Assembly (NCBI GenBank): GCA_002415855.1
Contig: DIAS01000162.1
Span: 3,647 to 67,646 of the forward strand
Direction: 5' to 3'
Source: Bacteroidales bacterium UBA5072
Lineage (GTDB): Bacteria; Bacteroidota; Bacteroidia; Bacteroidales; UBA10428
Length of the DNA: 64,000 nt
Below the pieces are notes generated by a model. That model made no database searches. It saw only the letters and a list, made by a program, of their open reading frames with translations, and was not told where the DNA came from. Positions 11,701-48,243 of the stretch are shown here, piece after piece; the first letter of the stretch is position 1; the number at the start of each line of letters is the position of its first letter. The position numbers were made by a program, and so were the translations under genes.

Positions 11701-12289
11701 GGCTGCCATCGATATTGTACAATTCAATGGCAGGGAAGTTTTGACGGATATTACGCCAAACGGCACCAACAGGACTAACTTCTGCCTGATTATCGATTGC
11801 CATGTACATATACCTTTCCCTGGTAAGGTCATCCATTCCGATATAAGTACATACTTCAGGGAGCCTGGCACACCTGTCGGCATCACCGTCTCTTCTGCCC
11901 CATGTCATGTAAAACATGGTACGGGCATTAGTATTGTACGAATTAACCTGTGAATGTAAGTTGCGTGCATACGGATATACATATACCTCAACCGTGCTTA
12001 ACGGCTCGGAAGGATACTGGCTGAATTCCTGTAAAATAACATAATCCCAGCCACCCTGTTGTATCAATCCCAGAGTAGTACTGTTTGAGGAGTGCTGCTG
12101 AAGGGTATAACCCGGAAGTGCACTAGACTGCCAGATCAGGGTTGCACCCCCGGAACTAGCCAGATTGGCAACGATCTGTGGCATGTCATTATAAAAGGTG
12201 TAACTGTTCCCGATAAACAATACCCTCCTTGTCTGACTGTTCCCAAACAGATAAAAAAAGATCAGTAACAGGGTAAGCGCTCTTTTCAA
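5786..12289 (-). CDS. giant T9SS-secreted surface protein: SGNH/GDSL-like N-terminal domain, 20 fibronectin type III repeats and a T9SS CTD
   Basis: The signal peptide is MKRALTLLLIFFYLFGNSQ. The N-terminal domain reads RRVLFIGNSYTFYNDMPQ...GGWDYVILQEFSQ. I counted 20 repeats of (L)(T/S)W.AS.DNVGV.GY.VY.NG...TV.A.DAAGN.S by eye. The C-terminus ITVFPNPVRDDYFYIDL...YYITVHIDGSVYNRKLI is a Por sorting domain. The start must be the TTG at 12289, because an in-frame TAG lies two codons upstream. Confidence 0.9.
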   Translation of the reverse strand: MKRALTLLLIFFYLFGNSQTRRVLFIGNSYTFYNDMPQIVANLASSGGATLIWQSSALPGYTLQQHSSNSTTLGLIQQGGWDYVILQEFSQYPSEPLSTVEVYVYPYARNLHSQVNSYNTNARTMFYMTWGRRDGDADRCARLPEVCTYIGMDDLTRERYMYMAIDNQAEVSPVGAVWRNIRQNFPAIELYNIDGSHPSEAGSYAAACAFYAAIFRKDPSLLTYNYTLSATDAANIRNAAKAVVYNNLATWYVGAYDVPDTQAPTAPTGLNATSVQQSSLTLNWTASTDNVGISGYTVYMNGVQVSTGRLTTASITGLSAATAYTFTVRARDGAGNLSPLSASLIVTTADTEAPTVPLALSSGNLTETGFTLSWAAATDNVGVTGYDVYRNGSLLSSVTGTSAVISGLTASTTYAMTVRARDAAGNASAQSTIFNVTTPDTHAPAVPAGLASANITQTSFTLSWTASTDNVGVIGYDVYRDGTYLETVTGTTFGISGLSAGTTYVMTVRAKDAANNVSAASTALSVKTLDPVVVDSQPPTAPTALASSGITQTSFILSWTASTDNVGVTGYLVYKNGVLEITVTSTSASITGLNVSTLYSFTVRARDAAGNLSAVSSPLSLTTPDTEAPAAPTGLSSGSLTETGFLFSWIASADNVGVTGYDVFQNGTRVASVTGTSANITGLSASTTYAMTVKAKDAAGNISIASAVFNVTTPDTQAPAAPGPLSASNITQSGFTLSWTASLDNVGVTGYDVYRNGSYESSVTGTTASITGLAASTSYAMTVRAKDAAGNTSVSSAILNVTTAEAVIVDSQAPAVPTGLTFSNVTQTGFTLGWTASTDNVGVTGYDVYQDGVLIATVAVNSADISGLTASATYAMTVSARDAAGNISGLSVPLNVTTLEVVIPDTEKPTAPTGLSSSDISETGFTLTWTASTDNIAVTGYDILLNSTHVTTVVSTTATLSDLPSATNYSVTVIAKDAAGNLSDPSTELIVRTLDEIIPDTQAPTVPAGLSSASVTETGFTLTWAASADDVGVTGYDVYRNGILLNTVTGTSMNITGLNAGATYSMTVSAKDAANNVSARSNILYVTTADFQAPTVPTGLSSAAVTETSFTFNWTASTDNAGVTGYDVYRNGTLLNTITGISFNVTGLSAGSAYSMTVRARDAAGNTSGLSSILYVTTADLHAPNVPAGLAAANITETSFSLTWTPSTDNVGVTGYDVYRNGSLLNSVTSASMTITGLNAGTAYAITIRAKDAAGNTSPVSSILNVTTLDTHAPSAPTGLTSSNLTQSSFTLNWTAASDNVGVTGYNVYRNGTLLQTVTAPSANVSGLSASVSYSMSVSAIDAAGNISSSSSVLVVTTPDTQAPAVPTGLTSSNISQSSFTLTWTASADNVGTTGYDVYQNGVFLVTVTGNTVGISGLAAYTSYAMTVRAKDAANNISSASAVLNVRTLDNQPPTTPAGLSISNLIQSGFRLNWTASTDNVGVAGYDVYQNGVQVATVTTNYVNITGLRASASYIMTVRARDAVGNTSPLSSPLPVTTPDTEAPSVPAGLSFSDLSQTGFTLTWSSSTDNVNVTGYDIYRDGVLVATVGGTAAGVTGLSAFRSYNMTVRARDAAGNVSAASAVLRVTTPDTEHPTTPTGLTYSNLTQSGFTLNWTGSTDNVGVTEYEIYEHNILARTVTGTAATLTGLAAARTYSITIRARDGAGNLSTPSDVLEVTTPDTEAPTVPSGLNYTNLTQSGFTLRWAVSTDNVGVTEYLVYQNGVQVTRVTGNSTVLVGLAAFRTYAMTVRAKDAAGNTSAVSSVLNVTTPDTEPPTVPAALTTNDITETGFTLKWKASSDNVGINGYEIYRDGSLLTICTDTVAQIDGLVAYKQYVMTVRAKDVAGNYSPVSDAIKVQTLDLQSPAAPAEVIADNVTDSTFTLSWSPASDNVGVVEYEVYCNNMPDLITSDTSIMITGLASSTQYVVFVKARDAAGNSSTASTEIQLITPDTQRPGIPEGLTAVNITYKSFKLKWNSAADNVGVTEYFVFQNDSLVATVTGTEAFFNELPYNTAYYMSVSAGDAAGNISDTCEYLEVTTGFPGNNATITVFPNPVRDDYFYIDLGREDFRKAVIELFDQSGNLLQRRIADGTNRLIVISDYELRVGVYYITVHIDGSVYNRKLIIDND
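6056..11515 (-). repeat. coding tandem array of 20 units averaging ~273 bp (FN3 repeats)
   Basis: The boundaries come from residues ~259-2078 of the 2,167-aa protein. Some units carry 3-5 extra linker codons (VVVDSQ, AVIVDSQ, EVVIPDTEK, DEIIPDTQ). Confidence 0.85.
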
Positions 12290-31628: not shown

Positions 31629-34433
31629 ATGAAAACTCCTTGCAGAAGCTTTACAAAATTCCTGTTGTCCTCCATGGCGGTTCTCCTGTTATGCGTTCCC
31701 CAGGATGTAAACAGCGCCGAGTTTGTTGTTATCAACAGAATAATCTCTTACGATATCAATGCATCCAGTGGATTCTGGTCATTTGGTATGAATGCCAGCA
31801 TGCCGGCAAACTGGGCATCGCCCAATGACTATTACCACGGGACTTTTTACACCCGTTATGAAATACTGAGTGTTCCGACGAATGTTCCATGCGGGATACA
31901 AATGGGTATTTTTCAGTGGCAGGGAGCCCATAATGATTCCTGCGGTGAGTTATGCGAGAGCATACGTGGTCCGCTGGCAGGTGTCGGAGCTGTTGTTACC
32001 AACAGCAGCAGCCCATCAACCTGGTGGCGTACTGAGGGCGGAGTCGATTTTTCCCGAATGAGCTACCTTGAAAGCATGGCCATTGTCCTCTATTCGTGGG
32101 ACACAAGGTATCCGGTAGCCCAGGCGGGACAAGGTGGTGATGCTGGCGGGATAAGCTGGAACCAGCGCTTCAACTGGTTCCCGATCACCCTCAGGGTTAC
32201 GGTTGTTGCTGTATCGTCAGGTTCCACCTTTTCCGGGTGGGACAATTATATACCCAATCCTGCCCTGCAAAAGCCCACTCCTGCATATGGCATTGATTAT
32301 ATCAATGAAACCACGGACAAGGTGGTTCCCGCAACAGATGAATACGCCCTGTTTCCGACAATGTTTGGCCGAGTAAGTGGCAGCGGTCAGAAAATGACCC
32401 TGATTCCCGGACGGGATGCATACTTTCGTACAAAGGCCGGAGACGGTTTACGCCAATCCGAGATCCAGCATTTTGATGTGCCCTGCAGGCCTGCCACTCC
32501 GAAATTTATTATGGATAAGGTCAACTACCGGACAACAACTACTGTGAGCAGTGAATATGAGTATTCTGATTATTCGGATATGTCTGAGGCTGTTACCGGG
32601 AACGGCACCTATGTTTCAATCCCCGCCGGAACAACCAAGTTCTTCAGAAAGAAGGCCACAGTTACTTCCTTTAAATCAGAAATCCAGGCACTGAACGAAT
32701 CATCCAAATCAGCTATACCACATGAACTTCTTGTTTTCAATGGTGTGATTGACTATCCGAATACAACGGATACCAATGGTTTTTACTATTTCTATTATAA
32801 TGCCGACATGCCCAAAGACTGGACAACGCCTGATAATTATTACAACGGAAATTTTTATATGCGTTATGAAATTATCAGCCAGAAAACTTCTACTCCGGTT
32901 GGTATGCAATTTGGATTGTGGCAGCTTCTGCCACCAGAAACAGGAGAATTGCATGAAACCATGTCTGGAATCACAACACTGAATGGCCCCGGCAGCTATG
33001 CAACTGCCGTCAGTAGTCCAAGTTCCTGGTGGAGACTGGATGGAGGATTTGATTATACCAAGATGGATCTCACCTGGCATATGGGTATAAATCCATGGAA
33101 GTTAGATAGCTATAATGGCAACCTTCAAATCAGGCAGGAAAACGCCAGTGTGTGGGCAGAAAGAAATACATACTGGTTTCCCATGAAGGTATATGTCACC
33201 ATTGTGGCGGTTGCTTCAGGATATTCCTTTTCAGGATGGAACAACTACCTGGGTGTGAAATATCCAACCCCGGCATATACCATCAATTATACAACCGAGA
33301 AAACAAGCCAGGTGGTTCCTGCAACCGACGAGTATTCCTATTCGCCAACCATGTCTCCTGCATATCCGGGCACAGGTGCTACGATAGACCTGTTACCGGG
33401 ACAGAATGTTTATTTCCGTACAAAGGCACAGGGAAGATTCCTGACATCAGATATCCAGCGCCTGGTTGTTCCGGAAAGACCAGCGCCGGTGTATACCGTA
33501 AACTACCAGGAGAAAAAGACCAACGAACCTGTTTCGGTGAACGATGAATATTCGACCAGCCCGGACATGACAGGTGCTTACGTGGGTACAGGTTCCACAA
33601 TCACCATTACCCCGGGTACCGATCTTTATTTCAGAACCAAGGCTACAACGTCTTCTTTCCGATCTGCAATCCAGCATCTGGTTGTACCCACCGTACCAGC
33701 GCCGCCGGCTTTTACCATTAATTATGACTTGGGCACCACGAATGAAACAGCCGGGACCAACATTGCCATTTCAAATTATGCAAATTTCTCCGGCCAGATC
33801 TTTGGCACCGGGACGTTTGTGACACTTGTACCCGGACAGGATTTGTACTTTAAACAGGTTGCCACAGGTTCATCTTTTGGCAGTGATGCTTCACACCTGG
33901 TGGTTCCGGCCTGCAACTTCCTCGGCTATTCCGGTGCAGACACCGTTACGTCAAGCAAGTTCACGGTGTATGCTATTCTCACCGATCAATCTCATGTACT
34001 GACCTTGGCCGATATCCAGGTGACCAACGGAACCGCACAGAACCTGCGTACCGGTAATGTGTTCGACATTTACCCGGCATCAAAGGGTTGGGTTACAGTT
34101 GTTATACCGGCGAATTCCATCAGTGAGAACTCCTTTGCCTCCAATGAAGTACGTGCCTATTACAATGTGGTAACAGGAGTAGATGAAATTACGGACATTG
34201 ATTTCGAAGTTTTTCCCAATCCCAGCTTCGACGGCCTGGTACAAATAAGGAACAATCGGCGAAAGGACTACCAGGTATGCGTTTACAATGTGAACGGGAA
34301 CATGACAAAGACTTTTGAAGTAAATGGAGGCGGCGATCAGCTGATCGACATGCGGGCTTACCCGAAGGGGATGTACTTCCTTCAGATAAGCTCGGATAAT
34401 TACACCCGTTTGCACAAGATCATTTTACAATAA
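31629..34433 (+). CDS. T9SS-secreted family member P3: N-domain, 2 modules, second N-domain, 3 modules, Ig-like VTNG domain and CTD
   Basis: There is a signal peptide. N-domain copy 1 runs AEFVVINRIISYD...FSGWDNY and copy 2 runs HELLVFNGVIDYP...FSGWNNY. The modules are of the PTPAYGIDYINETTD..YFRTKA type. The Ig-like block is CNFLGYSGADTVTSSKFTVYAILTDQSHVLTLADIQVTNGTAQNL. The CTD is FEVFPNPSFDGLVQI...GMYFLQISSDNYTRLHKIILQ. Confidence 0.87.
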   Translation: MKTPCRSFTKFLLSSMAVLLLCVPQDVNSAEFVVINRIISYDINASSGFWSFGMNASMPANWASPNDYYHGTFYTRYEILSVPTNVPCGIQMGIFQWQGAHNDSCGELCESIRGPLAGVGAVVTNSSSPSTWWRTEGGVDFSRMSYLESMAIVLYSWDTRYPVAQAGQGGDAGGISWNQRFNWFPITLRVTVVAVSSGSTFSGWDNYIPNPALQKPTPAYGIDYINETTDKVVPATDEYALFPTMFGRVSGSGQKMTLIPGRDAYFRTKAGDGLRQSEIQHFDVPCRPATPKFIMDKVNYRTTTTVSSEYEYSDYSDMSEAVTGNGTYVSIPAGTTKFFRKKATVTSFKSEIQALNESSKSAIPHELLVFNGVIDYPNTTDTNGFYYFYYNADMPKDWTTPDNYYNGNFYMRYEIISQKTSTPVGMQFGLWQLLPPETGELHETMSGITTLNGPGSYATAVSSPSSWWRLDGGFDYTKMDLTWHMGINPWKLDSYNGNLQIRQENASVWAERNTYWFPMKVYVTIVAVASGYSFSGWNNYLGVKYPTPAYTINYTTEKTSQVVPATDEYSYSPTMSPAYPGTGATIDLLPGQNVYFRTKAQGRFLTSDIQRLVVPERPAPVYTVNYQEKKTNEPVSVNDEYSTSPDMTGAYVGTGSTITITPGTDLYFRTKATTSSFRSAIQHLVVPTVPAPPAFTINYDLGTTNETAGTNIAISNYANFSGQIFGTGTFVTLVPGQDLYFKQVATGSSFGSDASHLVVPACNFLGYSGADTVTSSKFTVYAILTDQSHVLTLADIQVTNGTAQNLRTGNVFDIYPASKGWVTVVIPANSISENSFASNEVRAYYNVVTGVDEITDIDFEVFPNPSFDGLVQIRNNRRKDYQVCVYNVNGNMTKTFEVNGGGDQLIDMRAYPKGMYFLQISSDNYTRLHKIILQ

Positions 34434-34538: not shown

Positions 34539-37500
34539 ATGAGAAAACCTGTTTACACATTACAACGGTTAATCCTGATACTTCTGTTGTTGCTGTCGAT
34601 GAGATATTCCCAGGGAAGCGAGTTTGTCCTTATGAACAGGATCATATCCTATGATGTCAATGCTTCGGACGGTTTCTGGCTTGTAATGCCTGATGTCACA
34701 ATGCCCTCAAACTGGTTTACACCCGATAATTATTATTACGGTACAATTTACAGCAGGTATGAGATAATAAGCGCTCCCACCAGTGTGCCCTGTGCCATCG
34801 GCTGGGGATTCTTCCAATACAAAAACCCCCAGCAAACCGAACTCGGTGAGCTGTGTGAGCTGGCGCCAACCCTCGCCGGTACGGGAGCGGTTGCCTACAA
34901 AACGAGCAGTCCCTCCACCTGGTGGAGGACCGACGGAGGGGTGGATTTCTCAAAAATCGCTGATATGCAGAGTATGGGGGTTATCCTTTACTCAAAGAAT
35001 CCGGGTGATGGCAACGGCTGGCCGGTTTGCAGGTCAAACAATGGAGGCGATCCGGGAGGTATTACCTGGAATGAACGATTCAACTGGTTCCCGATGACCA
35101 TACGGGTCACTGTGGTAGCAGTATCCAATGGTTCAACCTTTTCCGGCTGGGACAGGTATGTTATTGATCCTTCGCGCAGGCAGCCTAAAACTGCATACGG
35201 AATTGATTTTATCAACGAAACCACGGACAGGGTAGTTCCTTCCACCGATGAGTTTTCAATATATTCGGGCATGGCCTATGCCGTTTCGGGCACGGGACAA
35301 CGGATGCCCATCACCCCCGGGCAGGATCATAATTTCAGGACAAAGGCCGGATCGGGTCTTCTGGCATCGGAAGTACAGCATTTCCGCGCCCCCGTGAGAC
35401 CCGGAACACCTGCTTTTGTATTGGACAAGGTCAACCACCGGACTACTACCGGGGTTTCAGGTGAGTATGAATATTCCGACAATCCGGATTTTACGGGAGC
35501 CGTTACCGGTACCGGAAGCCAGGTCAATATCCCTGCAGGCACTACGATGTACTTTCGCAAAAAAGCCACTGCCATCGCGTTCCGATCAACCGTACAGGCC
35601 CTGAACGAGTCGTCGGAGCTGCCGATTGCACATGAGCTGCTGCTCATCAACGACACCATTGAGTGGCCAAATGCCACCGATACGAACGGATTTTATTATT
35701 TCTATTACAATGCCGATATGCCGGCCAACTGGATAACACCTGACGATTATCATTACGGGGAGATATTTGCCCGTTACGAGATCATCAGTGAAAAAACCGA
35801 GGAAACCGTGGGTCTCCAGACAGGATTTTGGCAGATGCTTCCCCCGGAGACGGGTGAGTTGCACGAAACCATGTCGCCGATGGCCGTAATGAACGGCACC
35901 GGATCGGTAGTTACTGTGCGCAGCAGCCCCTACCAATGGTGGAAACTTACCAGCGGTTTCGATTATACACAGATGGACCGCACCTGGCACCTGGGTATCA
36001 ATCCCTGGAAGGTTGACCCAACCGATAACAGCAGGCTTCAGATCAGGCAGGAAAATTCATCGGTTTGGGCTGAACGCAATTCCAAATGGTTCCCGATGAA
36101 AGTATATGTTACCATTGTTGCTGTGGCTGCCTACCGGGAATTCTCAGGATGGCAGCATTATGTCAATTACAGCGCCAAAAGGAAAAGAGCCATGCCATCC
36201 ATCGGCATTGACTATATAAACGAGCAAACTAACCTGGTAATCCCTGATTCCGTTGAATATGCGTACGACGCCGGAATGTCGGGAGCAAGGAACGGCAGCG
36301 GGCAGAGACTGGCACTGACCCCTGGCAATGATGTGTATTTCAGAACGAGGGCCGGCATTGGGAATTATGCTTCCGACATCCTCCACCTGGTGGTTCCTGC
36401 AAATCCCCCGGCACCCGCAGTGACAATTAATTATGCAGGCGAGACCACAGCTGTACTTACACCCGGCACGGAATGGTCAGTTAACGCAGATATGTCGGGT
36501 GCCGTATCGGGAACGAATACAGCCATCCAGGTTACACCCGGTACGCACCGCTATTTCAGAAACAAGGCAACCGCCTCTGCCTTCAGGTCGGGTATCCAGG
36601 ATCTTTATATTCCGGTCAGGCCCGCAGCACCTGAAATTTCCATAAATTTTGCCGGCAATAGCACCGCTGTCATTCCATCCACCATGGAATGGGCCTTTAA
36701 CGCTACCATGATTCCGGCAGCCCGTGGACAGGGTATTACCGTACCGGTAACTCCCTCTGTAGATATGTATTTCAGGTCAGTCGCAACAGCCTCCGCATTC
36801 CGTTCAGAGATCCAACACCTTGTTGTTCCAGCCCTTCCCGCAACACCGGCCTATGGCATCAACTTCGTGCAACAAACAACCAACATTCCGGTTTCCGCAA
36901 ATGATGAGTATGCTTTTTCAGCGGATATGTCGGGTGCGGTTGCCGGCAGCAACACAGCGGTTAACGTAACACCGGGAATTGACATGTACTTCAGGCGCAA
37001 AGCCTCGGCAACTGCATTCCGATCGCTCATACAAACATTGGATGTACCTGCAAAACCAGCATCCCCGGCATTTACCATAAATTACACGGACGGTACTACC
37101 AACGAAGCGGCCGGAACGGATATAGCCTTTTCGGGTTATGCGGATATGGCTGGTCAGGTTTTTGGAACCGGAGTACCCGTGACGCTGCAGCCGGGTCACG
37201 ACCTGTACTTCAAACAGGTTGCCGGTTCAACATCCTTTACCAGTGATATTTCATTCCTGGCAGTGCCCTTCTGCAACTTCCTCGGCTATTCGGGCGCGGA
37301 TACCGTTACATCAAGCAAGTTCACGCTCTATGCTATTCTCACCGATCAGTCCCATGTACTGACATTAGCCGATATCCAGGTGACCAACGGAACCGCACAG
37401 AATCTCAGGGCCGGAAATGTATTCGATGTTTATCCTTCGGTTAAAGGTCCGGTATCAGTTGTTATTCCTGCAAACACGATTGCCGATAATACATTTGCCT

Positions 37501-37793
37501 CGAATGAGGTAACTGTTTATTACAATGTAGCTACGGGCCTTGCGGAATATGAAAAGGACAATATCAGTATCTATCCGAATCCAAGTGATGACGGGATCAT
37601 CTTCATACAGACCAATCAAAACAGGCCTTATTTGATAGGTATATATTCCCTTGATGGTCACCTGATGAAAACCCTGGAAATGCCTGACGGAGGAACGCGA
37701 CAGATCGATCTCAGCGATTTTCAGAAAGGCATGTATTTCCTGAAAGTAAGTTTACAAAACAATAACCGTATACACAAAATAATCTTGAATTAA
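34539..37793 (+). CDS. T9SS-secreted family member P4: N-domain, 2 modules, second N-domain, 5 modules, Ig-like VTNG domain and CTD
   Basis: It has the same architecture as P3 with two extra modules. The CTD is ISIYPNPSDDGIIFIQ...GMYFLKVSLQNNNRIHKIILN. Confidence 0.87.
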   Translation: MRKPVYTLQRLILILLLLLSMRYSQGSEFVLMNRIISYDVNASDGFWLVMPDVTMPSNWFTPDNYYYGTIYSRYEIISAPTSVPCAIGWGFFQYKNPQQTELGELCELAPTLAGTGAVAYKTSSPSTWWRTDGGVDFSKIADMQSMGVILYSKNPGDGNGWPVCRSNNGGDPGGITWNERFNWFPMTIRVTVVAVSNGSTFSGWDRYVIDPSRRQPKTAYGIDFINETTDRVVPSTDEFSIYSGMAYAVSGTGQRMPITPGQDHNFRTKAGSGLLASEVQHFRAPVRPGTPAFVLDKVNHRTTTGVSGEYEYSDNPDFTGAVTGTGSQVNIPAGTTMYFRKKATAIAFRSTVQALNESSELPIAHELLLINDTIEWPNATDTNGFYYFYYNADMPANWITPDDYHYGEIFARYEIISEKTEETVGLQTGFWQMLPPETGELHETMSPMAVMNGTGSVVTVRSSPYQWWKLTSGFDYTQMDRTWHLGINPWKVDPTDNSRLQIRQENSSVWAERNSKWFPMKVYVTIVAVAAYREFSGWQHYVNYSAKRKRAMPSIGIDYINEQTNLVIPDSVEYAYDAGMSGARNGSGQRLALTPGNDVYFRTRAGIGNYASDILHLVVPANPPAPAVTINYAGETTAVLTPGTEWSVNADMSGAVSGTNTAIQVTPGTHRYFRNKATASAFRSGIQDLYIPVRPAAPEISINFAGNSTAVIPSTMEWAFNATMIPAARGQGITVPVTPSVDMYFRSVATASAFRSEIQHLVVPALPATPAYGINFVQQTTNIPVSANDEYAFSADMSGAVAGSNTAVNVTPGIDMYFRRKASATAFRSLIQTLDVPAKPASPAFTINYTDGTTNEAAGTDIAFSGYADMAGQVFGTGVPVTLQPGHDLYFKQVAGSTSFTSDISFLAVPFCNFLGYSGADTVTSSKFTLYAILTDQSHVLTLADIQVTNGTAQNLRAGNVFDVYPSVKGPVSVVIPANTIADNTFASNEVTVYYNVATGLAEYEKDNISIYPNPSDDGIIFIQTNQNRPYLIGIYSLDGHLMKTLEMPDGGTRQIDLSDFQKGMYFLKVSLQNNNRIHKIILN

Positions 37794-38028: not shown

Positions 38029-40323
38029 ATGAAACCCCAATTTACACTTTACAGAAAATTCCTTTGCATCCTGTTTCTGGGGATTTTCCCGCTGTTCATT
38101 TATAACGTAAAAAGCGCAGAATTTGCGATCATCAACGGCACTTATTATTATCCATCCAGTGCCAATGCCTTTTACTGTCATGCTTCTCCTCCTTACGCCA
38201 ACTATCCATCTACAAACTGGCTTTCGCCCAATGATTTCTGGAACGGCACATTCTATGCCTATTATGAAGTAATCGATATACCTACTAACGAACCTTTCGC
38301 CATGCAGTTGGGAATTTTTCAATATTACCCCAATGCGGCAAACTGGGATTACCAGAATTTCTATGAGACATGTTCGCTGGTTTTTCCTCAGCTTCAGGGA
38401 GCAGGCTCATATGCTGAGGTAAATTGCGGCTCACCGGCCAACTGGTGGCAGCATCCAAACGGGGCAGTGGATTTTACCAGGGTGTATGACTTTGAAAGCG
38501 TTGGTCCGGTAATGTATAGCCGTACAGCCGGTGCCTATGGAATTTTGTACCCGCCGGATGCTGCTGCATGGGCCGTGCGTGCGAATTATTTCCCATGCAC
38601 CATCCGGGTAATCGTGGTTGCGGTTTCTGCCGGATCACAGTTTTCAGGATGGGCCAATTACATCAACGGCGGTGGCGGAGGCGGTGGTTGTACACCTGTG
38701 CAACAGGCCACGCCAACCTATGCAATCAATTTTGCCACTGAAAGAACCAACAAGGTCGTTCCAACTACAGACGAGTATTCTTACAATTCCAACATGTCAG
38801 GTGCAGTAAGCGGCACCGGGTCCACCCTTTTGCTTACGCCCGGTCAGGATGTATATTTCCGTACCAAGGCCAGTGGTGATTGTTATCTGGCTTCCAACAT
38901 TCAGCATCTTGATGTACCCACCCGGCCTGCAGGCACTCCTTCTTATTCTATTGATTATTACAACGAACGAACCAATGAGACTGTGAGTTCCACTGTCGCC
39001 TATTCAACAACTCCCAATTTTACCTCTCCGGTGAGCGGTACCGGTGCAACGGTTAACTTAACACCCGGACAAGACCTGTACTTCTGGGTGAAAGAAACCT
39101 CCAGCACCTTTGCTTCTGACGTTTATCATCTTCCGGTTCCTGCCCGTCAGCAAACACCTGCAATAACGGTTGATTTTAACAACGAGGTCACCTCAGCCGT
39201 TTCATCTGCGCAGGAATGGTCTACCAGCGCTTCCATGACTTCTCCAACCACAGGTACCAATGCCGCATTACCGGTCTCACCCGGTACGAACCTTTATTTC
39301 CGGACAAAGGCGACAGCAAGTGCATTCTTATCTGCTGTGCAAACCCTGAACGTACCTGCCCGTCCCGCAACTCCGACTTACGGAATCGATTATGCAACGG
39401 AAAAAACATCACAGGCTGTTCCTGCAACAGATGATTATTCTGTACATTCCGATATGTCATCCGCCTCAGCCGGAACCGGAGCTGCTATAACACTGACTCC
39501 CGGCACGGACCTGTATTTCAGAACCAGGAACAGTGCCAGTTCCTTCCGGTCAGCAACTCAGCACCTGACAGTTGCCGCACGACCTGCAACACCATCATTC
39601 CATATCGATTATGGCAATGAAACCACCTCAGAAACAGTAGGTGGCACAATTGAGTATGCTGCCACCGCAGATATGACATCACCAGCGTCAGGTACAGGAG
39701 TAAAACTTCCCCTTACACCGGGTGAGGACCTCTATTTCAGGGTAAAATCAACCGGATCATCATTCGCCAGCCAGAATTACCAGCTGGACGTACCGGCACG
39801 ACCAACCCTGGAATACACAGGGGAGGACACCGTAACCTCCGCAACCATTACCATGCATGCCTTACTGGATGCCGGCATGACAGGATTCGACCTCAATGAT
39901 TTGTCGGTTACCAATGGCATCGCCCAGAATTTAAGGGCCGCAAATTATTTCGACGTCATCGGGCAGAACAAGGGTGATGTCACAGTAATCATTCCGGTTA
40001 ATAAATTTGGTGGAGCAAGCTTTGCTTCCAATGAAGTGGTTGTTTATTACAATAAATCAGCTACCGGGATATCGGAAGAAAATGAGGATGGTTTTATTGT
40101 CTATCCCAATCCGAATGGCAGCGGTATCCTGTATATCCGTGCAAGACAGGTTACCCCCTATTCCATTGAAGTTTTTTCAGCTGACGGTAATCTGGTCAAA
40201 ACTGTCCTCATGGACAAGGGAGAAGAACAACCCCTTGACCTGAAGGAACTGACAAAAGGCATATACTTCCTGAAATTTCAAACAAAAGAAAGTCATTCGG
40301 TGGTAAAGGTTGTCCTGAAATAG
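38029..40323 (+). CDS. T9SS-secreted family member P5: N-domain, Gly7 linker, 5 modules, Ig-like VTNG domain and CTD
   Basis: There is a signal peptide. The N-domain runs AEFAIINGTYYYP...FSGWANY and is followed by GGGGGGGC. The modules are ATPTYAINFATERTNK...YFRTKASGDCYLASNIQHL and four relatives. The CTD is FIVYPNPNGSGILYI...GIYFLKFQTKESHSVVKVVLK. Confidence 0.87.
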   Translation: MKPQFTLYRKFLCILFLGIFPLFIYNVKSAEFAIINGTYYYPSSANAFYCHASPPYANYPSTNWLSPNDFWNGTFYAYYEVIDIPTNEPFAMQLGIFQYYPNAANWDYQNFYETCSLVFPQLQGAGSYAEVNCGSPANWWQHPNGAVDFTRVYDFESVGPVMYSRTAGAYGILYPPDAAAWAVRANYFPCTIRVIVVAVSAGSQFSGWANYINGGGGGGGCTPVQQATPTYAINFATERTNKVVPTTDEYSYNSNMSGAVSGTGSTLLLTPGQDVYFRTKASGDCYLASNIQHLDVPTRPAGTPSYSIDYYNERTNETVSSTVAYSTTPNFTSPVSGTGATVNLTPGQDLYFWVKETSSTFASDVYHLPVPARQQTPAITVDFNNEVTSAVSSAQEWSTSASMTSPTTGTNAALPVSPGTNLYFRTKATASAFLSAVQTLNVPARPATPTYGIDYATEKTSQAVPATDDYSVHSDMSSASAGTGAAITLTPGTDLYFRTRNSASSFRSATQHLTVAARPATPSFHIDYGNETTSETVGGTIEYAATADMTSPASGTGVKLPLTPGEDLYFRVKSTGSSFASQNYQLDVPARPTLEYTGEDTVTSATITMHALLDAGMTGFDLNDLSVTNGIAQNLRAANYFDVIGQNKGDVTVIIPVNKFGGASFASNEVVVYYNKSATGISEENEDGFIVYPNPNGSGILYIRARQVTPYSIEVFSADGNLVKTVLMDKGEEQPLDLKELTKGIYFLKFQTKESHSVVKVVLK

Positions 40324-40440: not shown

Positions 40441-43400
40441 ATGAAGACATTGTATGCCCATTGCAGGCTTATCCTTGTTTTTGTCAGTGTCTTATTCATG
40501 TTGTTCTCGCACAAAGCCCTGGGAGGTGAGTTCGTGATCATGAACCAGACCTTCACCTATACAGTAAATGCCAATGCCTTCGCCTGTCATGTTTCTCCAC
40601 CGTTTGACAATTCAATTCCAGCAAACTGGTTATCTCCGGAGAATTACTGGACCGGAAGTATTCATGCCTATTATGAAGTTATCAGCGTTCCCACAAGTGA
40701 ACCCTTCGGGTTTCAGATGGGTATTTTTCAATATATGCCCAGCCAGGCGCAATGGGATGGGGTTAACTTTTATGAAACCTGTTCCTATGCCGTCCCCGAA
40801 CTCCGGGGTGTCGGAGATGTGTTGGAATATAACTACGGCTCCCCCTCAAGCTGGTGGCAACACTGGAATGGCGCTGTCGATTTCTCCAGGGTCTACGATT
40901 TTGAAAGTGTAGGACCAGTCATTTACAGTCTTGTACCAGGAGCCAGTGGTGCCTTGAGCACCACTGCCGGAGGAGGTGATGATGCAGCCTGGGCGATTCG
41001 CTATAACTGGTTTCCCTGTACCATACGGGTTATTATCGTTGCAGTGTCAGCAGGATCACAGTTTTCAGGTTGGGCAAATTATGTTAACGGAGGTCCCTGT
41101 ACACCTGTCGCACAGGCAACTCCATCCTATGCGATTGACTATGCCAATGAAACCACGACCTCGGTTGTTCCGAGCACGGATGAGTATTCCGGCAATGCCG
41201 ACATGTCGGGAGCTGTTAGCGGAACCGGACAAAAGCTGGCCCTTACTCCCGGTCAGACGGTTTATTTCCGGACCAAACAACTGGATGAATGTCACCTTGC
41301 CTCTAACATACAGACGCTTGTTGTGCCCCAGCGGCCATCTGCGCCATCCTTTTCAGTTGATTATATTTATGAAACCACTGTGGAGGCAGTGAGCAGTAAC
41401 GTGGAATATTCCACCAGCCCCGGTATGACTTCCACCTCAACCGGAACTGGAGCGACTGTTGCGCTAACACCCGGTCAGGATATGTACTTCAGGATAAAAG
41501 CAACCGGATCTGCATTTGCCAGTCTGAATTTCGTTCTGGATGTGCCGGAAAGGCCTGCTGCACCGGCCGGATATACCATTGATTTTCTCAACGAAAGAAC
41601 CGTGGAGAACGTGGGTTCCAACATAGCCTATTCTACTTCCCCGGTTTATTTAAATCCCGTAAGTGGTTCGGATATTACGGTGTCCGTAACTCCAGGTCAG
41701 GATCTGTACTTTTGGGTGAAGGGTTCTGCCTCGGTATTCAAATCCGCCACCTACCGGCTGATCGTTCCGGCCCGGCCGGCAGCTCCATCCATTGCCATTA
41801 ACTTCATCACCGAGGTCACCTCGGTCATTTCATCAACCCAGGAATGGTCCACCAGCGCCGTCATGGCATTACCCGTTGCAGGTACCAACTCCGGGGTACC
41901 TGTAACTCCGGGAATTGACCTGTATATCAGGAACCTTGCAACTGTGAATGCATTCAAATCCTCCATACAAACCCTTGATGTTCCTGATCGTCCGGCTGCC
42001 CCGGCATACCAGATCAACTACACTACGGAAAGGACTGTGCAGGTTGTCCCGTCTTCTGATGAATACTCGCTCAATCCCGACATGTCCGCGGCTTCATCGG
42101 GTTCAGGTGTTGCTCTGACCTTGACGCCGGGCACAGATGTTTATTTCCGGACCAAAGCATCTCTGGGTTCTTTCATTTCCGGTATTCAGCACCTGACTGT
42201 TGGCCTTCGGCCTGCATCTCCCGAATTTCAGATCAATTATGTGAATGAAACCACCGCGGAAAACGTAAGCAATACTATTGAATATTCTACTGCAGCGAAT
42301 ATGGCTTCCGCCATGACCGGAACCGGAATTCCTGTGACCCTGACACCCGGACAAGACATGTATTTCAGGGTGAAAGCCTCAGCTACTGCATTTGCCAGTC
42401 TCAATTTCGTTCTGGATGTGCCGGAAAGGCCTGCTGCACCAGCCGGGTATACAGTTGATTTCATCAACGAAACGACGGTGGAAAATGTGAGTACTGCCCT
42501 TGCTTATTCCACATCCCCTGCTTATTTGAATCCTTTAAGCGGAACCGGCAACAAGGTCCCGGTGACACCCGGTCAGGACCTGTATTTCTGGATAAAAGGG
42601 TCAATAGGTGTATTCAATTCTTCCACGTTTCGGCTGGCTGTGCCGAACCGGCCTGCTGCGCCTGCCATAGCCATTAACTTCACCACCGAAGTCACCTCGG
42701 CTATTTCATCAACCCAGGAATGGTCCACCAATCCTTCTATGGTTTCAGCCTTTCCGGGTACCAATACAGGGATACCGGTCACCCCGGGTATGGACCTGTA
42801 TATAAGGAACATGGCCACTGCGGGAACATTCAGATCTTCAGTACAAACCCTTGATGTTCCTGACCGGCCATCGGTCCCGGCCTACCAGATCAATTATGCC
42901 ACGGAAAGGACCTCCCAGCTTATTCCTGCAGCAGATGAATATTCTTATTATTCCGACATGTCCTTTGCTACTTCCGGAACCGGCGTGGCATTGTCCCTTA
43001 TTCCTGGTACGGATGTATATTTCAGAACGAAGGCCTCAATCAACTCCTTCATTTCCGGCATACAGCACCTGACGGTAGGTCTGCGGCCCGCATCTCCGGA
43101 GTTTCATATCAACTATGTCAATGAAACGACGTCGGAAAACATAAACAATACCATTGAATATTCTCCTGCAGCGGATATGGCTTCCGCCCTCACCGGAACC
43201 GGAGTGCCTGTGACGCTGACACCCGGCCAGATCATGTATTTCAGGGTGAAAGCTACCGCATCTTCCTTTGCCAGCCTCAACCATCTATTGAATGTACCAG
43301 CACGACCGGCGGCTCCTCCTGGATACACCATTGATTATATCAATGAAAGAACCATAGAAGAGGTCAACACTGACATAACTTTTTCAACCTCCCCGACATA

Positions 43401-44703
43401 CTCAAACCCGGTGAGCGGTACCGGTTCAAGGGTCACCGTAACGCCAGGTCAGGACCTGTATTTCTGGATAAAAGGTTCAACAGGCGTATTCAACTCTTCC
43501 ACCTTCCGGCTGATTGTGCCGAACCGTCCGGTTGCTCCCGCAGTAACCATTGATTTTACCCGGGAAGTTACCTCGACAATTTCATCAGCCGAGGAATGGT
43601 CAACCAGTCCAACCCTGGCTACGGCGATAACAGGCACCAATACCGGCATACCGGTTACCCCGGGTACCGATCTTTATATCAGGAACCTGGCGACAGCCAA
43701 TGCTTTCAAGTCTTTGACCCAAAATCTGAATGTCCCTGACCGGCCGGCTACCCCGAGCTACCAGATCAATTACGTCACGGAGAAAACGTCAAAAGCCGTT
43801 CCCATAACGGATGAATACTCCAGGTACCCGGATATGTCATCTGCTTCATCGGGAACAGGTATTGCTTTGTCCCTTACGCCAGGTACAGATCTGTTTTTCA
43901 GGACCAAAGCTTCTGCGAGTTCTTTCATTTCTGAAATTCAGTATCTGTCTGTCGGCTTCCGTCCTGCTCCGCCAGCGTTCCAGATCAACTTCGAAAACAT
44001 AACCACCCTTGAAAACGTGAATAACACTATTGAGTATTCTTCCTCATCCGATATGGCATCTGCCACAACAGGCAAGGGCGTTCCTGTCAGCCTGTCACCC
44101 GGTCATGATATGTATTTCAGGATCAAAGCAACCGGATCTGCCTTTGCCAGCCTGAACTTTCCTTTGTTGGTACCGGCTGCTCCAATACTCGTTTATACCG
44201 GGAATGACACCACAACATCCGGAACAATAACCGTGCAGGCAGTATTAGAGGAAACCATGACCGGTTTTGATCTGACGGATTTATCGGTCATCAATGGTAC
44301 CGCACAAAACATCCGGGAAAATAACACATTCGACGTTATTGCCGGGGAAAGGGGCCTCGTCACGGTGAACATTCTCAGCAATGCATTTGGAGGAGCCAGT
44401 TTCCCTTCGAATGCCGTAACGGTATTTTACAACAAGAACGCAACAGGAATTTCCCTTTCTGAAGAAAGTCAGTTTATTGTATATCCAAATCCCAGCCACG
44501 ACGGGATCATACACATTAAGGCCGAAAACGGGCTGCCTTTTACAGTTGAAGTCTACTCGAATGAGGGCGCCTTGGTGAAAATCTGGGACATGAATGGAGG
44601 GAAAGACCAAATCATCAACCTGCAGGCACTGGCTAAGGGAATCTACTTCCTTAAGATCAATGCCCGTGGAAAAACTTTTATAAAAAAGGCAGTACTGGAG
44701 TAA
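40441..44703 (+). CDS. T9SS-secreted family member P6: N-domain, 14 modules, Ig-like domain and CTD
   Basis: There is a signal peptide. The N-domain runs GEFVIMNQTFTYT...FSGWANY. I counted 14 ~73-aa modules by eye. The CTD is FIVYPNPSHDGIIHI...GIYFLKINARGKTFIKKAVLE. Confidence 0.87.
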   Translation: MKTLYAHCRLILVFVSVLFMLFSHKALGGEFVIMNQTFTYTVNANAFACHVSPPFDNSIPANWLSPENYWTGSIHAYYEVISVPTSEPFGFQMGIFQYMPSQAQWDGVNFYETCSYAVPELRGVGDVLEYNYGSPSSWWQHWNGAVDFSRVYDFESVGPVIYSLVPGASGALSTTAGGGDDAAWAIRYNWFPCTIRVIIVAVSAGSQFSGWANYVNGGPCTPVAQATPSYAIDYANETTTSVVPSTDEYSGNADMSGAVSGTGQKLALTPGQTVYFRTKQLDECHLASNIQTLVVPQRPSAPSFSVDYIYETTVEAVSSNVEYSTSPGMTSTSTGTGATVALTPGQDMYFRIKATGSAFASLNFVLDVPERPAAPAGYTIDFLNERTVENVGSNIAYSTSPVYLNPVSGSDITVSVTPGQDLYFWVKGSASVFKSATYRLIVPARPAAPSIAINFITEVTSVISSTQEWSTSAVMALPVAGTNSGVPVTPGIDLYIRNLATVNAFKSSIQTLDVPDRPAAPAYQINYTTERTVQVVPSSDEYSLNPDMSAASSGSGVALTLTPGTDVYFRTKASLGSFISGIQHLTVGLRPASPEFQINYVNETTAENVSNTIEYSTAANMASAMTGTGIPVTLTPGQDMYFRVKASATAFASLNFVLDVPERPAAPAGYTVDFINETTVENVSTALAYSTSPAYLNPLSGTGNKVPVTPGQDLYFWIKGSIGVFNSSTFRLAVPNRPAAPAIAINFTTEVTSAISSTQEWSTNPSMVSAFPGTNTGIPVTPGMDLYIRNMATAGTFRSSVQTLDVPDRPSVPAYQINYATERTSQLIPAADEYSYYSDMSFATSGTGVALSLIPGTDVYFRTKASINSFISGIQHLTVGLRPASPEFHINYVNETTSENINNTIEYSPAADMASALTGTGVPVTLTPGQIMYFRVKATASSFASLNHLLNVPARPAAPPGYTIDYINERTIEEVNTDITFSTSPTYSNPVSGTGSRVTVTPGQDLYFWIKGSTGVFNSSTFRLIVPNRPVAPAVTIDFTREVTSTISSAEEWSTSPTLATAITGTNTGIPVTPGTDLYIRNLATANAFKSLTQNLNVPDRPATPSYQINYVTEKTSKAVPITDEYSRYPDMSSASSGTGIALSLTPGTDLFFRTKASASSFISEIQYLSVGFRPAPPAFQINFENITTLENVNNTIEYSSSSDMASATTGKGVPVSLSPGHDMYFRIKATGSAFASLNFPLLVPAAPILVYTGNDTTTSGTITVQAVLEETMTGFDLTDLSVINGTAQNIRENNTFDVIAGERGLVTVNILSNAFGGASFPSNAVTVFYNKNATGISLSEESQFIVYPNPSHDGIIHIKAENGLPFTVEVYSNEGALVKIWDMNGGKDQIINLQALAKGIYFLKINARGKTFIKKAVLE
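41527..44154 (+). repeat. higher-order coding tandem repeat: 3 copies of an 876-bp unit (4 modules, 292 codons each)
   Basis: AATTTCGTTCTGGATGTGCCGGAAAGGCCTGCTGCACC occurs at 41527 and again at 42403, an offset of exactly 876 bp. The third copy starts at 43279. The four module subtypes recur in the same order in each copy. Confidence 0.85.
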
Positions 44704-44720: not shown

Positions 44721-45731
44721 CTAGCAGCCGGTGATTAACCGGCTGTTCTTCTTGAAAATCAGCTTAAATGGTACAAGAAGCAATATGCTGAATGCAACGA
44801 TCAGCATAAATGAAAAAATCAGGCCCACGCCATTTGAATTAAGAAATCCATCGACTGACAGTTTGACATAAGCATAGGATACCAGGATGATGGTATATTT
44901 ATGGATGAAAAAGATCCCGAAACTGTATTTTGCTACCAGTCCCATGACCGTATCGAGTTTAACCGAGGAAATCTTGTAAAACATAAACAGGCACAAGAAG
45001 GTAAGCGGTAGTTTCTGCAGGTAGCTGAATCGCTCATCCACAAAACAGGCAGCAGTAAGGACAAGTAATGCAACCAGGAGGAGTACCCAGTTTCTGGTGA
45101 GGTAGCTGAAATATCGCTCGGCATAGTGCGAGGTATGCATACCCAGCAAATAAACGGGCAAAAAGTATACAAAGGATTGCAAAGTATTGTCATTCATAGG
45201 CGGTCGATCCACAATCAAGGATATAATTATTAAACCCGGTATAATGGCGTACCACGCAGGATGACGGTCGATATACCGAAGAATTGGTGAGATCAGGTAG
45301 AAAATGCTGATCATGGGAATAAACCAGAACTGCGGCAGGTGTGAGCCGGTAGCATAAAAAAGGATAATTTTTACAAATACTGGTCTACTTTGAAAAGACG
45401 GGGTGTTGATCCAGCTGCTGTCAAGCCATTCTGGCCTGGTCAGCATCAAAAAGATGGCCGGCACCGACATGATAATATAGGGAAGTATCACATTCTTGAA
45501 CTTTTTGCCCAGGTACGATGCGTACGTGTATCTGTCGAGCAGGTACTGGAACAGATAGCCCGAAATGAAGATAAACAGCATGGAGCTGTTTGAAAGCAAT
45601 ATCCTGAGCACATTGAACTCACCGGGACTTGAATCCGCTATTAAATAAATGGTATGTACTGCTACGATCAGCAGCATCGCAAATCCCCTGAAATTGTTAA
45701 TATAATTAAGATAGGACCTTTCTTTCAACAC
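44721..45731 (-). CDS. membrane-bound acyltransferase family 3 (O-acyltransferase)
   Basis: The N-terminus YINNFRGFAMLLIVAVHT and about 10 TM segments are typical of Acyl_transf_3 proteins in glycan loci. Confidence 0.8.
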   Translation of the reverse strand: MLKERSYLNYINNFRGFAMLLIVAVHTIYLIADSSPGEFNVLRILLSNSSMLFIFISGYLFQYLLDRYTYASYLGKKFKNVILPYIIMSVPAIFLMLTRPEWLDSSWINTPSFQSRPVFVKIILFYATGSHLPQFWFIPMISIFYLISPILRYIDRHPAWYAIIPGLIIISLIVDRPPMNDNTLQSFVYFLPVYLLGMHTSHYAERYFSYLTRNWVLLLVALLVLTAACFVDERFSYLQKLPLTFLCLFMFYKISSVKLDTVMGLVAKYSFGIFFIHKYTIILVSYAYVKLSVDGFLNSNGVGLIFSFMLIVAFSILLLVPFKLIFKKNSRLITGC

Positions 45732-45804
45732 TTTAAGAATTTAGGGTTAGAGAATCATAAAATTCATGCAGATCATTGTGCGCTGAAGCGGTGCGTGGTG
45801 CACA

Positions 45805-46725
45805 TTACCTTAAACGATCTCCAAAGCATAACTTATAAATATACCAGTTCATAAAACGGCTGAATAACGGAAGTTTCATCAGAAATCCGGTGAATTTCAT
45901 GTACCCCGGATTTGGATAGGCTGTTGTGATCTCAACATTGGGATACTGATTGACAAAAAATTGTATACCGGTAATCCTCACATATTCGACTGCCAGCCTG
46001 GTCACAATGTTATTCTTAACATTCCTTTCACGAATGAGGCTTAAGCGATATTTATAAACATTGTTGATCATATCATCAATCAGCCTGTTGGTGGACTGAT
46101 TGGGAGATATTCTGTAATAGGCCAGCTCCTGGTCAATGTAAAGCATCAGGGAGTTTTCCGTCAGCCGCCTCCAGAAATCGAGGTCTGCAATAGGATGCAA
46201 GGGCACATTGAAACCATTCAGTTTTAGCCCAAGTTCGCGGTTAAATACAACGCCCGGGAAAGGTGAGAGCTGCCTGAAATAGAAGTACGTAGGCTTTACA
46301 GGAATAAAAACATCCGTGAGGCGGGTCAATTGATTTGCCTCAGGCCATTCCTCCGACCCCACATGATTGTTAACAGCAAACCCGCCAACTTTGCTCTTAA
46401 ACCGGGTCAGGATCTCCCGGGTAAGCTCAACAAACTGGCAATGCAGGTAATCATCGTCATGAAGAATGGTAATCCAGGGCGTTTTAGTAAACCTGATGCA
46501 ATTGTTGAAATTCTCATCCTGGGGTACGGTTTCAGCAGTTTTAATATACGCAATCAATGGACTATTGTAGCTATCAATGATAGCCTTGAACTCATCGTGA
46601 GGAGAATTGTTGTCAACAACCAGAATCTTGCATTTTACGGTTTGATTCAAAGCGCTTTCAATCGCTTTTCTGAAATACTCCGTTCGCTTATAAACAGGCA
46701 AAGCAATCGTTAGGGTATCTACCAT
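45805..46725 (-). CDS. glycosyltransferase family 2
   Basis: LTIALPVYKRTEYFRKAIESALNQT...ILVVDNNSPHD...ILHDDDY shows the GT-A fold and the DxD region. Confidence 0.85.
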   Translation of the reverse strand: MVDTLTIALPVYKRTEYFRKAIESALNQTVKCKILVVDNNSPHDEFKAIIDSYNSPLIAYIKTAETVPQDENFNNCIRFTKTPWITILHDDDYLHCQFVELTREILTRFKSKVGGFAVNNHVGSEEWPEANQLTRLTDVFIPVKPTYFYFRQLSPFPGVVFNRELGLKLNGFNVPLHPIADLDFWRRLTENSLMLYIDQELAYYRISPNQSTNRLIDDMINNVYKYRLSLIRERNVKNNIVTRLAVEYVRITGIQFFVNQYPNVEITTAYPNPGYMKFTGFLMKLPLFSRFMNWYIYKLCFGDRLR

Positions 46726-47145
46726 GGACTTTAATTGTTTAAACCTTCAAAAGTAACTAAAAACAAATTGCCGTGAAAATCGCACCTTTGTTATACCAGC
46801 TAAACCACAATGATTTATGAGCAGTTGAGAACCAAAAATCCTCTGTTTATAACCCGGTGTCAGCATTTTATCAAAATTGGCAATCAACTTAAAAAACACT
46901 ATGAATTATGGCTTTATTGGTGTTGCAGCTTCTTCATGCTATTACGAGATGTCAATTTGAATGGTTACGGTCATGGTGCGTTCACAGCATAGGATTAATT
47001 TTACAGGTGTAATAGCAGGAACAATTTTCAGTTATCCTCGTAAAGGTATTGCATCATTTCGTGCAGGGATACTGGCTGAAATCTGACCGGAAGATGAGCT
47101 TAGCAGATTATCATCCAACTGAATAACCACATTTAATGACTTACC

Positions 47146-48243
47146 ATGGAACCAAAAGTTTTAATTGTTCAACGTTTTTATTACAACTTCAGAGAGGGCT
47201 TTTATGATTACCTGTATGAAAGCAAGGTCAATTTCCGGCTCATTAATTCCACCTGTTCATTGGGCAGGGTCACCGTTCATAAGACGGCCAGGGAGAAGCC
47301 CTATATCAAACAGGTTCCCATGTTTACCTTGGGGCTTAATTATGTCATATTCCCATTTCTCTTTTTCCACATCTGGTTCATAAATCCGGCATGGATCATT
47401 ACCGAAGGGGGACAGAATACGTTCAATAACCTGCAGGTACTGTTATACCATTTCCTGACCCGGAAAAAATACATCATCTGGGACCTGGGGAAAGGGTATG
47501 ATGAATTCCCGGATACCTTTTTGAGGAAGATTTATATGCGTTTTTACAAACTGACGCTCAGAAAAGCATCCTGGATCTATACTTACAACTCTTCGGGTAA
47601 ATTGTATTTTGAATCGCTGGGAATTGACGGCAACAAGGTCCTGGTTTTGAACAATACGGTGGATACGCGGAAAATAAAGCTTTACCGTGAAAAATCAGCC
47701 GGCATGAGACCCGGTGAAACGGATCTTTCAAAGGAGGGGGACAGGATCAACCTGATCTTTGTCGGGGCCCTCCTGCCATCCAAAAATATTGAAGACCTGA
47801 AGCCACTGATGGATTTACTGGGTGAAAAATATTTTCTGATCATGGTTGGTGACGGTGAGCCGGAATACAGGGCACGGTTGCATAAACTTTTTGAGCATAC
47901 CCCGTGCAGGTTCGTCGGTTATAAGAAACTGGATGAAATCGCACCCTACTATAATCTTGCCTCTTTTGCCGTTTTACCCGGTCTTGGGGGATTATCCATT
48001 AACCAGGCCCTGGCGTTTGGATTGCCTGTCATATGCCGGAGCGCAGATGGTGCAGAAAAAGATCTGATCCATGAAAATGAGACAGGTCACATCTATTCAT
48101 CCTTGCAGGATGCAGCAGATTACATCAGGAGTCAAAGTCAGGAAGATTGGGAACGCATGGGGCAATTGTCCCAAAAGCTTATTTATTCTGAGCATAGCCT
48201 GGAATCGATGACTGAGAAATTCCTTTCCAAAATTAAATCCTGA
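47146..48243 (+). CDS. glycosyltransferase, GT4 (GT-B) family
   Basis: The C-terminal half reads LIFVGALLPSKNI...FAVLPGLGGLSINQALAFGLPVICRSADGAEKDLIHENETG, an E(x7)E-type motif region. Confidence 0.8.
   Translation: MEPKVLIVQRFYYNFREGFYDYLYESKVNFRLINSTCSLGRVTVHKTAREKPYIKQVPMFTLGLNYVIFPFLFFHIWFINPAWIITEGGQNTFNNLQVLLYHFLTRKKYIIWDLGKGYDEFPDTFLRKIYMRFYKLTLRKASWIYTYNSSGKLYFESLGIDGNKVLVLNNTVDTRKIKLYREKSAGMRPGETDLSKEGDRINLIFVGALLPSKNIEDLKPLMDLLGEKYFLIMVGDGEPEYRARLHKLFEHTPCRFVGYKKLDEIAPYYNLASFAVLPGLGGLSINQALAFGLPVICRSADGAEKDLIHENETGHIYSSLQDAADYIRSQSQEDWERMGQLSQKLIYSEHSLESMTEKFLSKIKS

Follow-up and report, generated by a model that had tools for sequence, protein, structure and literature searches.

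In titin and nebulin, super-repeats built from blocks of 7 or 11 immunoglobulin (Ig) or fibronectin type III (FN3) domains arose by amplification of a multi-domain block as a unit, domains holding the same position in successive blocks resemble one another more than they resemble adjacent domains, and purifying selection has maintained the copies, which are old. In surface proteins of Gram-positive cocci such as alpha C/Rib, SasG/Aap with their G5-E repeats, and Bap, in-frame domain repeats set the length of a stalk; the repeats are nearly identical at the DNA level and copy-number variation between strains has been documented. Among the Bacteroidota, GhpA, the grappling hook protein of Aureispira (PDB 9flu, 9flp and 9g8b; bioRxiv 10.1101/2024.01.29.577165), is a surface appendage with small Ig-like stem repeats in long series, while SprB and RemA of Flavobacterium johnsoniae combine a putative binding head with a large, beta-rich ectodomain of repeats and a sorting domain at the C-terminus. 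Here we analyse a stretch of 64,000 nt (the window) from Bacteroidales bacterium UBA5072 (assembly GCA_002415855.1, contig DIAS01000162.1, positions 3,647 to 67,646 of the forward strand), in which the gene at 40441..44703 (+) holds the whole of an 876-bp repeat. The ORF list, the translation and a match to a sorting domain indicate that this gene encodes a 1420-aa cargo protein (P0001) of the type IX secretion system (T9SS).

We consider it very probable that the repeat arose by block duplication of a four-bead unit in a T9SS surface protein, followed by purifying selection and patchy gene conversion, leaving a stalk of 14 beads compared with 5.

Anatomy of the 876-bp repeat

A single open frame (40441..44703, +) spans the entire array and is unbroken across all joins. 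With module boundaries set at a recurring V-P-x-R-P-x-x-P linker, the array divides into 14 modules of 72-74 aa each (aa 222-1243, nt 41104-44169), ordered S-D0, A1-B1-C1-D1, A2-B2-C2-D2, A3-B3-C3-D3. It opens with a starter module S (aa 222-294; 41104..41322, +), which the module tree places in the S type, and an orphan module D0 (aa 295-367; 41323..41541, +). These are followed by three cassettes on the same strand, namely K1 (41542..42417, comprising A1 41542-41763, B1 41764-41979, C1 41980-42198 and D1 42199-42417), K2 (42418..43293, comprising A2, B2, C2 and D2) and K3 (43294..44169, comprising A3, B3, C3 and D3), the last of which aligns colinearly with the one A-B-C-D set that the neighbouring paralog has.

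The 876 nt of the repeat correspond to four modules of 216-222 nt, present in three full copies. Amino acid identity is 64-79% within a subtype, 35-50% between subtypes and 38-47% between adjacent modules, so that modules at the same position resemble one another more than the modules next to them, and they form subtype clades. The 876-bp periodicity is a genuine in-frame higher-order tandem repeat. A preliminary description of this DNA had recognized four subtypes in a constant order, and the module map, the identities and the tree all recover that order in each of the three cassettes. It had also spoken of a triplicated cassette, which is right as to the number of copies, but the array begins earlier, at 41104, with the starter module S and the orphan D0 ahead of the three full cassettes, and is not a simple triplication. 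The possibility that the starter module is an S/C hybrid left by a deletion was rejected, as this module is S-type over its full length.

In the self-comparison of 40441..44703 the 876-bp diagonal is present. Self-identity by offset, calculated for 41100-44160, peaks at 876 nt (67% over 2184 nt) and reaches 61% at 1752 nt, with the remaining module-multiple offsets at about 32-38%. A repeat search returned three families of 300 nt, each represented by three copies at successive distances of 876 nt and 70-77% identical, and moreover a 36-nt motif with 13 occurrences, one every 216-222 nt. Tandem Repeats Finder detected no array: it handles periods of up to 500, and the copies have diverged too far for it.

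Within the window, the 38-nt string AATTTCGTTCTGGATGTGCCGGAAAGGCCTGCTGCACC has two exact occurrences and no more; they start at 41527 and 42403, 876 bp apart, as first reported, and no match is expected in shuffles (0 matches). The first copy (41527..41564, +) lies on the D0/A1 junction, within a 55-nt tract with one mismatch (41510-41564), and the second (42403..42440, +) on the D1/A2 junction. The start of the third cassette had been placed at 43279, which is in the correct register; the module boundary follows 15 nt further downstream, and the sequence beginning at 43279 has mismatches to the 38-mer at 16 of its 38 positions.

Age, selection and local homogenisation of the cassettes

DNA identity is 74.7% between K1 and K2, 69.2% between K1 and K3 and 69.6% between K2 and K3, a range of 69-75% that is slightly lower than the 75-80% previously estimated by eye. 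For the same three pairs, Nei-Gojobori estimates of synonymous divergence (dS) are 1.08, 1.55 and 1.63, and the ratios of nonsynonymous to synonymous divergence (dN/dS) are 0.15, 0.14 and 0.13. Values of dS of 1.1-1.6 and of dN/dS of 0.13-0.15 mean that the amplification is old, as had been proposed, and that each copy is under purifying selection. Since this selection acts on all copies (dN/dS about 0.14), all 14 beads are therefore taken to be in use. The similarity of the cassettes is by descent, because their identity at third codon positions, 0.45-0.55, is above the chance level of 0.256 ± 0.019 obtained from out-of-register offsets.

On this background of old divergence, short stretches of high identity are found. 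The longest exact run in the 876-nt register is the 38-nt tract described above, and other identical runs between adjacent cassettes measure 29, 28, 22 and 21 nt. A run of 38 nt was matched in 15 of 5000 shuffles of codon columns and in 28 of 5000 when the pattern of identical amino acids was held fixed. The 3' end of D0 carries the first copy of the identical tract, and the identity between D0 and D1 climbs along the module from about 0.5 to 1.0.

The relationship among the cassettes was also followed along the unit, using the sites where two cassettes agree against the third. At cassette positions 146-218 no site joins K1 with K2 and 14 join K2 with K3; at positions 584-656 the pairing of K1 with K3 dominates; and at positions 657-802 there are 34 sites joining K1 with K2 and 15 for the other two pairings. 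This uneven pattern of the nearest cassette has a permutation p below 0.0002 for all sites and of 0.0002 for third positions alone. Such a mosaic indicates short gene-conversion patches after the duplications, of which the 38-mer is the longest tract. The earlier suggestion that the cassettes are homogenised only locally is thus borne out, both by a 38-nt run that exceeds the shuffle expectation and by a nearest-cassette relation that changes along the unit.

Origin of the cassettes among paralogs and relatives

Searching the 4.5-Mb genome with a profile of the module yields 35 copies, all of them in five clustered genes inside the window, which carry 4, 5, 7, 5 and 14 modules and each encode a sorting domain. 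The adjacent paralog, of 764 aa (gene 38029..40323), has its modules at 38692..39789 (+) in the unexpanded arrangement S-A-B-C-D and served as comparator. Each of the groups A1-3, B1-3, C1-3 and D0-3 is monophyletic in the module tree; copy 1 pairs with copy 2 as its sister, copy 3 branches outside both, and D0 falls outside D1-D3 as their outgroup. The modules of the 764-aa paralog sit beside, and not inside, the matching subtype clades of the 1420-aa protein.

At the DNA level the 764-aa paralog is colinear with the head and S of the longer gene and then with K3 and the C-terminus, positions 2968-4052 of the latter aligning by blastn with positions 1000-2084 of the paralog. D0-K1-K2 therefore looks like inserted material. 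The S-A-B-C-D arrangement is also present in the metagenome relatives P0019, P0023 and P0032, whose modules are 62-81% identical to the subtype references, and in a larger tree P0019 and P0023 group with the 764-aa paralog, outside the 1420-aa clades. As the paralog and these relatives have one S-A-B-C-D set, the triplication is specific to the lineage of the 1420-aa gene. A triplicated ortholog was found neither in 18 genomes of the same genus nor among 5.8 billion clustered proteins, where the one entry nearly identical to the protein is the same gene called in truncated form; the corresponding 90% protein cluster contains only the full-length form and this mis-called truncated form.

The members of the module family are T9SS cargo proteins from metagenome-assembled genomes (MAGs) of Bacteroidales and Bacteroidota and from metagenomes of soil, wetland and sludge. 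Across 120 relatives, mean identity between modules as a function of lag shows independent higher-order repeats in members from unrelated metagenomes, with a period of three modules in P0011, P0012, P0014, P0021, P0088 and P0093 and of four in P0028; in the larger tree the repeat copies of P0028 and of P0093 form protein-restricted clades. Smaller units have been duplicated as well, an A-B pair in P0004 and a single C in P0013. Module pairs at least 60% identical number 36 at lag 1, 40 at lag 2, 29 at lag 3 and 15 at lag 4 in the family. The gain of blocks is common between species, the blocks comprise one to four modules, and similar neighbours are not avoided. Within the genus the distribution of the family is patchy, any member being present in only 6 of the 18 genomes.

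Two other paralogs of the cluster, of 934 aa (31629-34433) and 1084 aa (34539-37793), show two separated module groups at aa ~211-356 and ~542-908, which implies an internal duplication of a head plus two modules, unlike the 876-bp block. The window also encodes, on the reverse strand (5786-12289), a 2167-aa T9SS cargo protein with 19 FN3 matches (E=4e-195), a DUF4886 and a sorting domain, a repeat type unrelated to the present one. After the repeat gene, at 44721-48243, we found genes for an acyltransferase_3, a GT2 and a GT1/GT4 glycosyltransferase, which places the paralog cluster within a region for polysaccharide synthesis.

Protein architecture and predicted fold

The translation of the 1420-aa protein begins with a hydrophobic N-terminus, MKTLYAHCRLILVFVSVLFMLFSHKALG, a putative signal peptide. 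It is followed by an aromatic-rich N-terminal head domain of about 190 aa (40528..41103, +), which was delimited on the translation, has no match in Pfam or NCBIfam and is conserved among family members. The S subtype always adjoins this head domain, and in the module tree S groups with the first modules of all five paralogs. Downstream of the array lies a membrane-proximal region (44170..44478, +) that is probably Ig-like, given a weak Pfam Big_12 match (E=0.0016, under the family cut-off), and then a T9SS type A C-terminal sorting domain (aa 1347-1418; 44479..44694, +), matched by PF18962 (Por_Secre_tail; 47.2 bits, cut-off 27) and TIGR04183 (46.9 bits, cut-off 23). With a C-terminal sorting domain above the curated cut-off the protein belongs to the T9SS type A cargo, and surface anchoring is likely. 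The machinery is represented in the same genome by PorV (NF033710, 490 bits, cut-off 250). Searches for GldM_gliding (TIGR03517) and SprA_N (PF14349) gave zero matches, which is uninformative as they gave zero in the control genomes too.

When the protein was compared with Pfam and NCBIfam, only the sorting domain scored above the cut-off, next to the sub-threshold Big_12 that precedes it; neither fn3 (PF00041) nor any Big family reached the gathering threshold. A match to TOBE (PF03459, E=6e-8) was discarded, since not a single stretch passes and the score is an artefact of summing over the TPGxDLYFR strand, which is repeated. The same label appears in the precomputed annotation of the relatives P0004, P0005, P0011, P0012 and P0021. 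A profile search of the PDB pointed to the designed Kelch-like SAKe proteins (E=1e-13), which was likewise rejected as a summed repeat artefact in which no single stretch passes.

The fold of the modules was predicted with AlphaFold2 on a C-D pair, from 16 sequences of the window itself, and the resulting two-module model is all-beta, with a predicted local distance difference test (pLDDT) score of 97 and a predicted TM-score (pTM) of 0.82. In a Foldseek comparison with the PDB, tandem FN3 pairs (neogenin, NCAM and titin A77-A78) are among the top matches, and the best superpositions are on the Ig-like stem repeats of Aureispira GhpA (TMq 0.44-0.50). The all-beta model and its superposition on solved domains (E 0.003-0.04) assign the modules to the Ig/FN3-like beta-sandwiches. 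According to this model the modules would be serial Ig/FN3-like beads, and the protein may be read as a head, a stalk and a sorting signal.

Cassette number in metagenome runs

The cassette number was followed in Logan k=31 contigs, the form of all 16 metagenome runs listed for the locus (handles X1 and so on); contigs built at k=31 are unable to resolve a repeat of 38 nt. The locus is present at 100% identity in eight runs from soil and wetland, and contigs specific to K2 and to K3 were recovered independently in eight runs. In X1, X4 and X5 the 38-mer forms the end of the left contig and the start of the right one, a 38-nt unitig stands at double depth, and a contig of 898 nt (41535-42432) is bounded on both sides by the 38-mer. 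The depth of K1 in these three runs is 0.8-1.0x that of the flanks, and in X4 and X5 it equals that of the right flank, a layout and depth that fit one passage through K1.

Other runs gave different joints. In X2 and X6 a contig joins 41526 to 42403 and the interior of K1 is a separate contig at 0.7x depth; the contigs of these two runs are identical and were counted as one observation. A contig of X10 runs from 42402 back into 41527. We did not accept these 876-bp joints as alleles, since they are alternative k=31 walks through the 38-nt repeat under thin coverage. X10 and X11 (activated sludge, 2025) contain a strain about 97% identical to ours, with sequence specific to K1, to K2 and to K3. 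This sludge strain (runs X10-X12) keeps the 38-mer; the locus is otherwise from soil and wetland samples.

No Nanopore or PacBio run carrying the locus was found. A metagenome contig collection held no match to either an IUPAC pattern of the junction or the 38-mer, and a genome contig collection held none to the 38-mer. In a second assembly of the same population (GCA_002380925.1, L009, DFWN01000109.1 667-942) a scaffold gap of 214 N falls exactly at the 38-mer, with flanking contig ends that overlap by 24 nt, and because of this gap the gene was called there as a 1030-aa fragment starting at V391 (P0002).

A first alternative, taking up the idea of length variants within populations from the preliminary description, is an active length-variation locus, in which alleles with 2, 3 or 4 cassettes coexist and vary the reach or the antigenic display of the protein; we regard it as unlikely. 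RecA-dependent exchange in E. coli has a minimum of roughly 23-27 bp, and the identical tracts of 38, 29, 28, 22 and 21 nt reach about this minimum or exceed it. Gene conversion between cassettes has occurred, and gain or loss of blocks is frequent across the family. Moreover the joint of X2 and X6 would amount to one cassette fewer, the joint of X10 runs in the opposite sense, and in X1, X2 and X6 K1 reaches 0.7-0.8 of the depth of the flanks. On the other hand, both joints occur only in low-coverage runs without K1 ends, X2 and X6 are a single observation, and the depth of K1 is that of the right flank in X4 and X5. The sludge strain, with about 3% divergence, retains the specific sequence of all three cassettes, and the protein collection holds one full-length form only.

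The state of the repeats themselves also speaks against it. Known length-variable surface proteins have repeats more than about 90-95% identical, whereas the cassettes here are 69-75% identical. Being 25-31% diverged and having identical tracts of at most 38 nt, they are, next to those classic variable repeats, a poor substrate for homologous unequal exchange, contrary to the preliminary description, which had presented them as substrates for recombination. Gain or loss of a whole cassette is mechanistically possible but should be rare, and was not observed.

Proposed history and further alternatives

The history that we favour, block duplication with later purifying selection and gene conversion, would start from an ancestral S-A-B-C-D stalk, probably the one kept in the adjacent paralog and the metagenome relatives. 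The A-B-C-D block would then have been duplicated as a unit at least twice in the lineage of the 1420-aa gene, the likely mechanism being unequal exchange or replication slippage between related modules. D0 may be the remnant of an additional, older cassette copy after loss of its A-B-C part. Later, short gene-conversion patches would have swapped sequence between the cassettes and left the mosaic. The longer stalk (about three times, 14 beads compared with 5) would hold the head farther from the outer membrane than the four neighbouring paralogs do.

Several points weigh against this history or parts of it. The module tree rests on 73 columns and several of its forks are unresolved, among them the order within the B clade and the C clade in the larger tree. 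A partial deletion as the source of D0 is one of several possible histories. The Foldseek E-values, 0.003-0.04, are weak, which makes the fold class clear and gives no specific homolog, and the function of the stalk in reach is a probable one drawn from the fold and from analogy. The depth of K1 at 0.7-0.9 of the flanks in some runs, together with two contigs that skip K1, makes a minority allele lacking K1 possible. Finally, no RNA run was found to contain the gene.

A second alternative, to which we give little credence, is that the block of four unlike beads was selected as a structural super-repeat, either to avoid misfolding between domains or to register with a periodic partner, as in titin. 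Divergence between neighbouring tandem Ig-like domains is an established principle (PMC4660218). The low identity of adjacent pairs, 38-47% compared with the 64-79% of partners four apart, would agree with such selection, and so would the S-A-B-C-D order, which is conserved across species. Against it, 36 adjacent pairs in 26 proteins of the family are at least 60% identical, 14 of them at least 70%, and single-module duplicates are as common as block duplicates, so dissimilarity of neighbours is not enforced. In addition no periodic partner is known, and the size of the block varies between one and four modules among relatives. A related and still less probable idea is that the four-bead period registers with a polysaccharide layer produced by the glycosyltransferase cluster around the gene or with laterally packed paralog stalks; the 38-nt tract would then maintain recombinational contact between the cassettes and let the length shift by whole periods.

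That the number of cassettes is wrong through looping or collapse by the assembler is very improbable: although GCA_002380925.1 breaks at the 38-mer and the k=31 unitigs break there too, the cassettes differ at 25-31% of sites and are each unique, so that they can be neither collapsed nor invented, the ambiguity is limited to the number of passages through K1, for which a K1 depth of 0.8-1.0x and a double-depth 38-mer fit one, the reading frame is open through all joins, and K2 and K3 contigs come independently from eight runs.

Significance and comparison with known systems

The block duplication inferred here offers a datable case in which a bacterial surface protein has grown by an ordered multi-domain block and not by the addition of single domains. 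Independent amplification of one to four modules explains the wide spread of lengths in the family. The locus has practical consequences as well. The 38-nt tract disrupts short-read assembly and has already caused a truncated gene call in a public MAG, and in precomputed annotation the family receives misleading TOBE labels from weak matches that add up. By itself the finding raises no new biological question and is an ordinary example of block duplication.

With the titin and nebulin super-repeats the locus shares the amplification of a multi-domain block as a unit, the closer relation of same-position domains than of neighbours, and the age of copies that are under purifying selection. In contrast to titin, the 1420-aa protein is bacterial, T9SS-exported and extracellular, its unit is of four modules in three copies, and there is no sequence homology between the two. 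The repeat unit of SasG has two modules (G5-E), and the near-identical DNA repeats and documented strain variation of alpha C/Rib, SasG/Aap and Bap differ from the situation here, where the repeats are 69-75% identical and no copy-number variation was seen.

The 1420-aa protein resembles SprB and RemA in its C-terminal sorting domain, its beta-rich ectodomain of repeats and its putative binding head; SprB, however, has a type B sorting domain and other repeats, and no match to a sequence family of this kind was obtained for the 1420-aa protein in Pfam or NCBIfam. GhpA, a surface appendage of the same phylum, is far larger and forms hooked fibres, and at 12-17% sequence identity the likeness would be one of fold only, as judged from the model. 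By analogy, the locus would be titin-like in its evolution and similar in its structure to the Ig-like beads of bacterial adhesins and GhpA.

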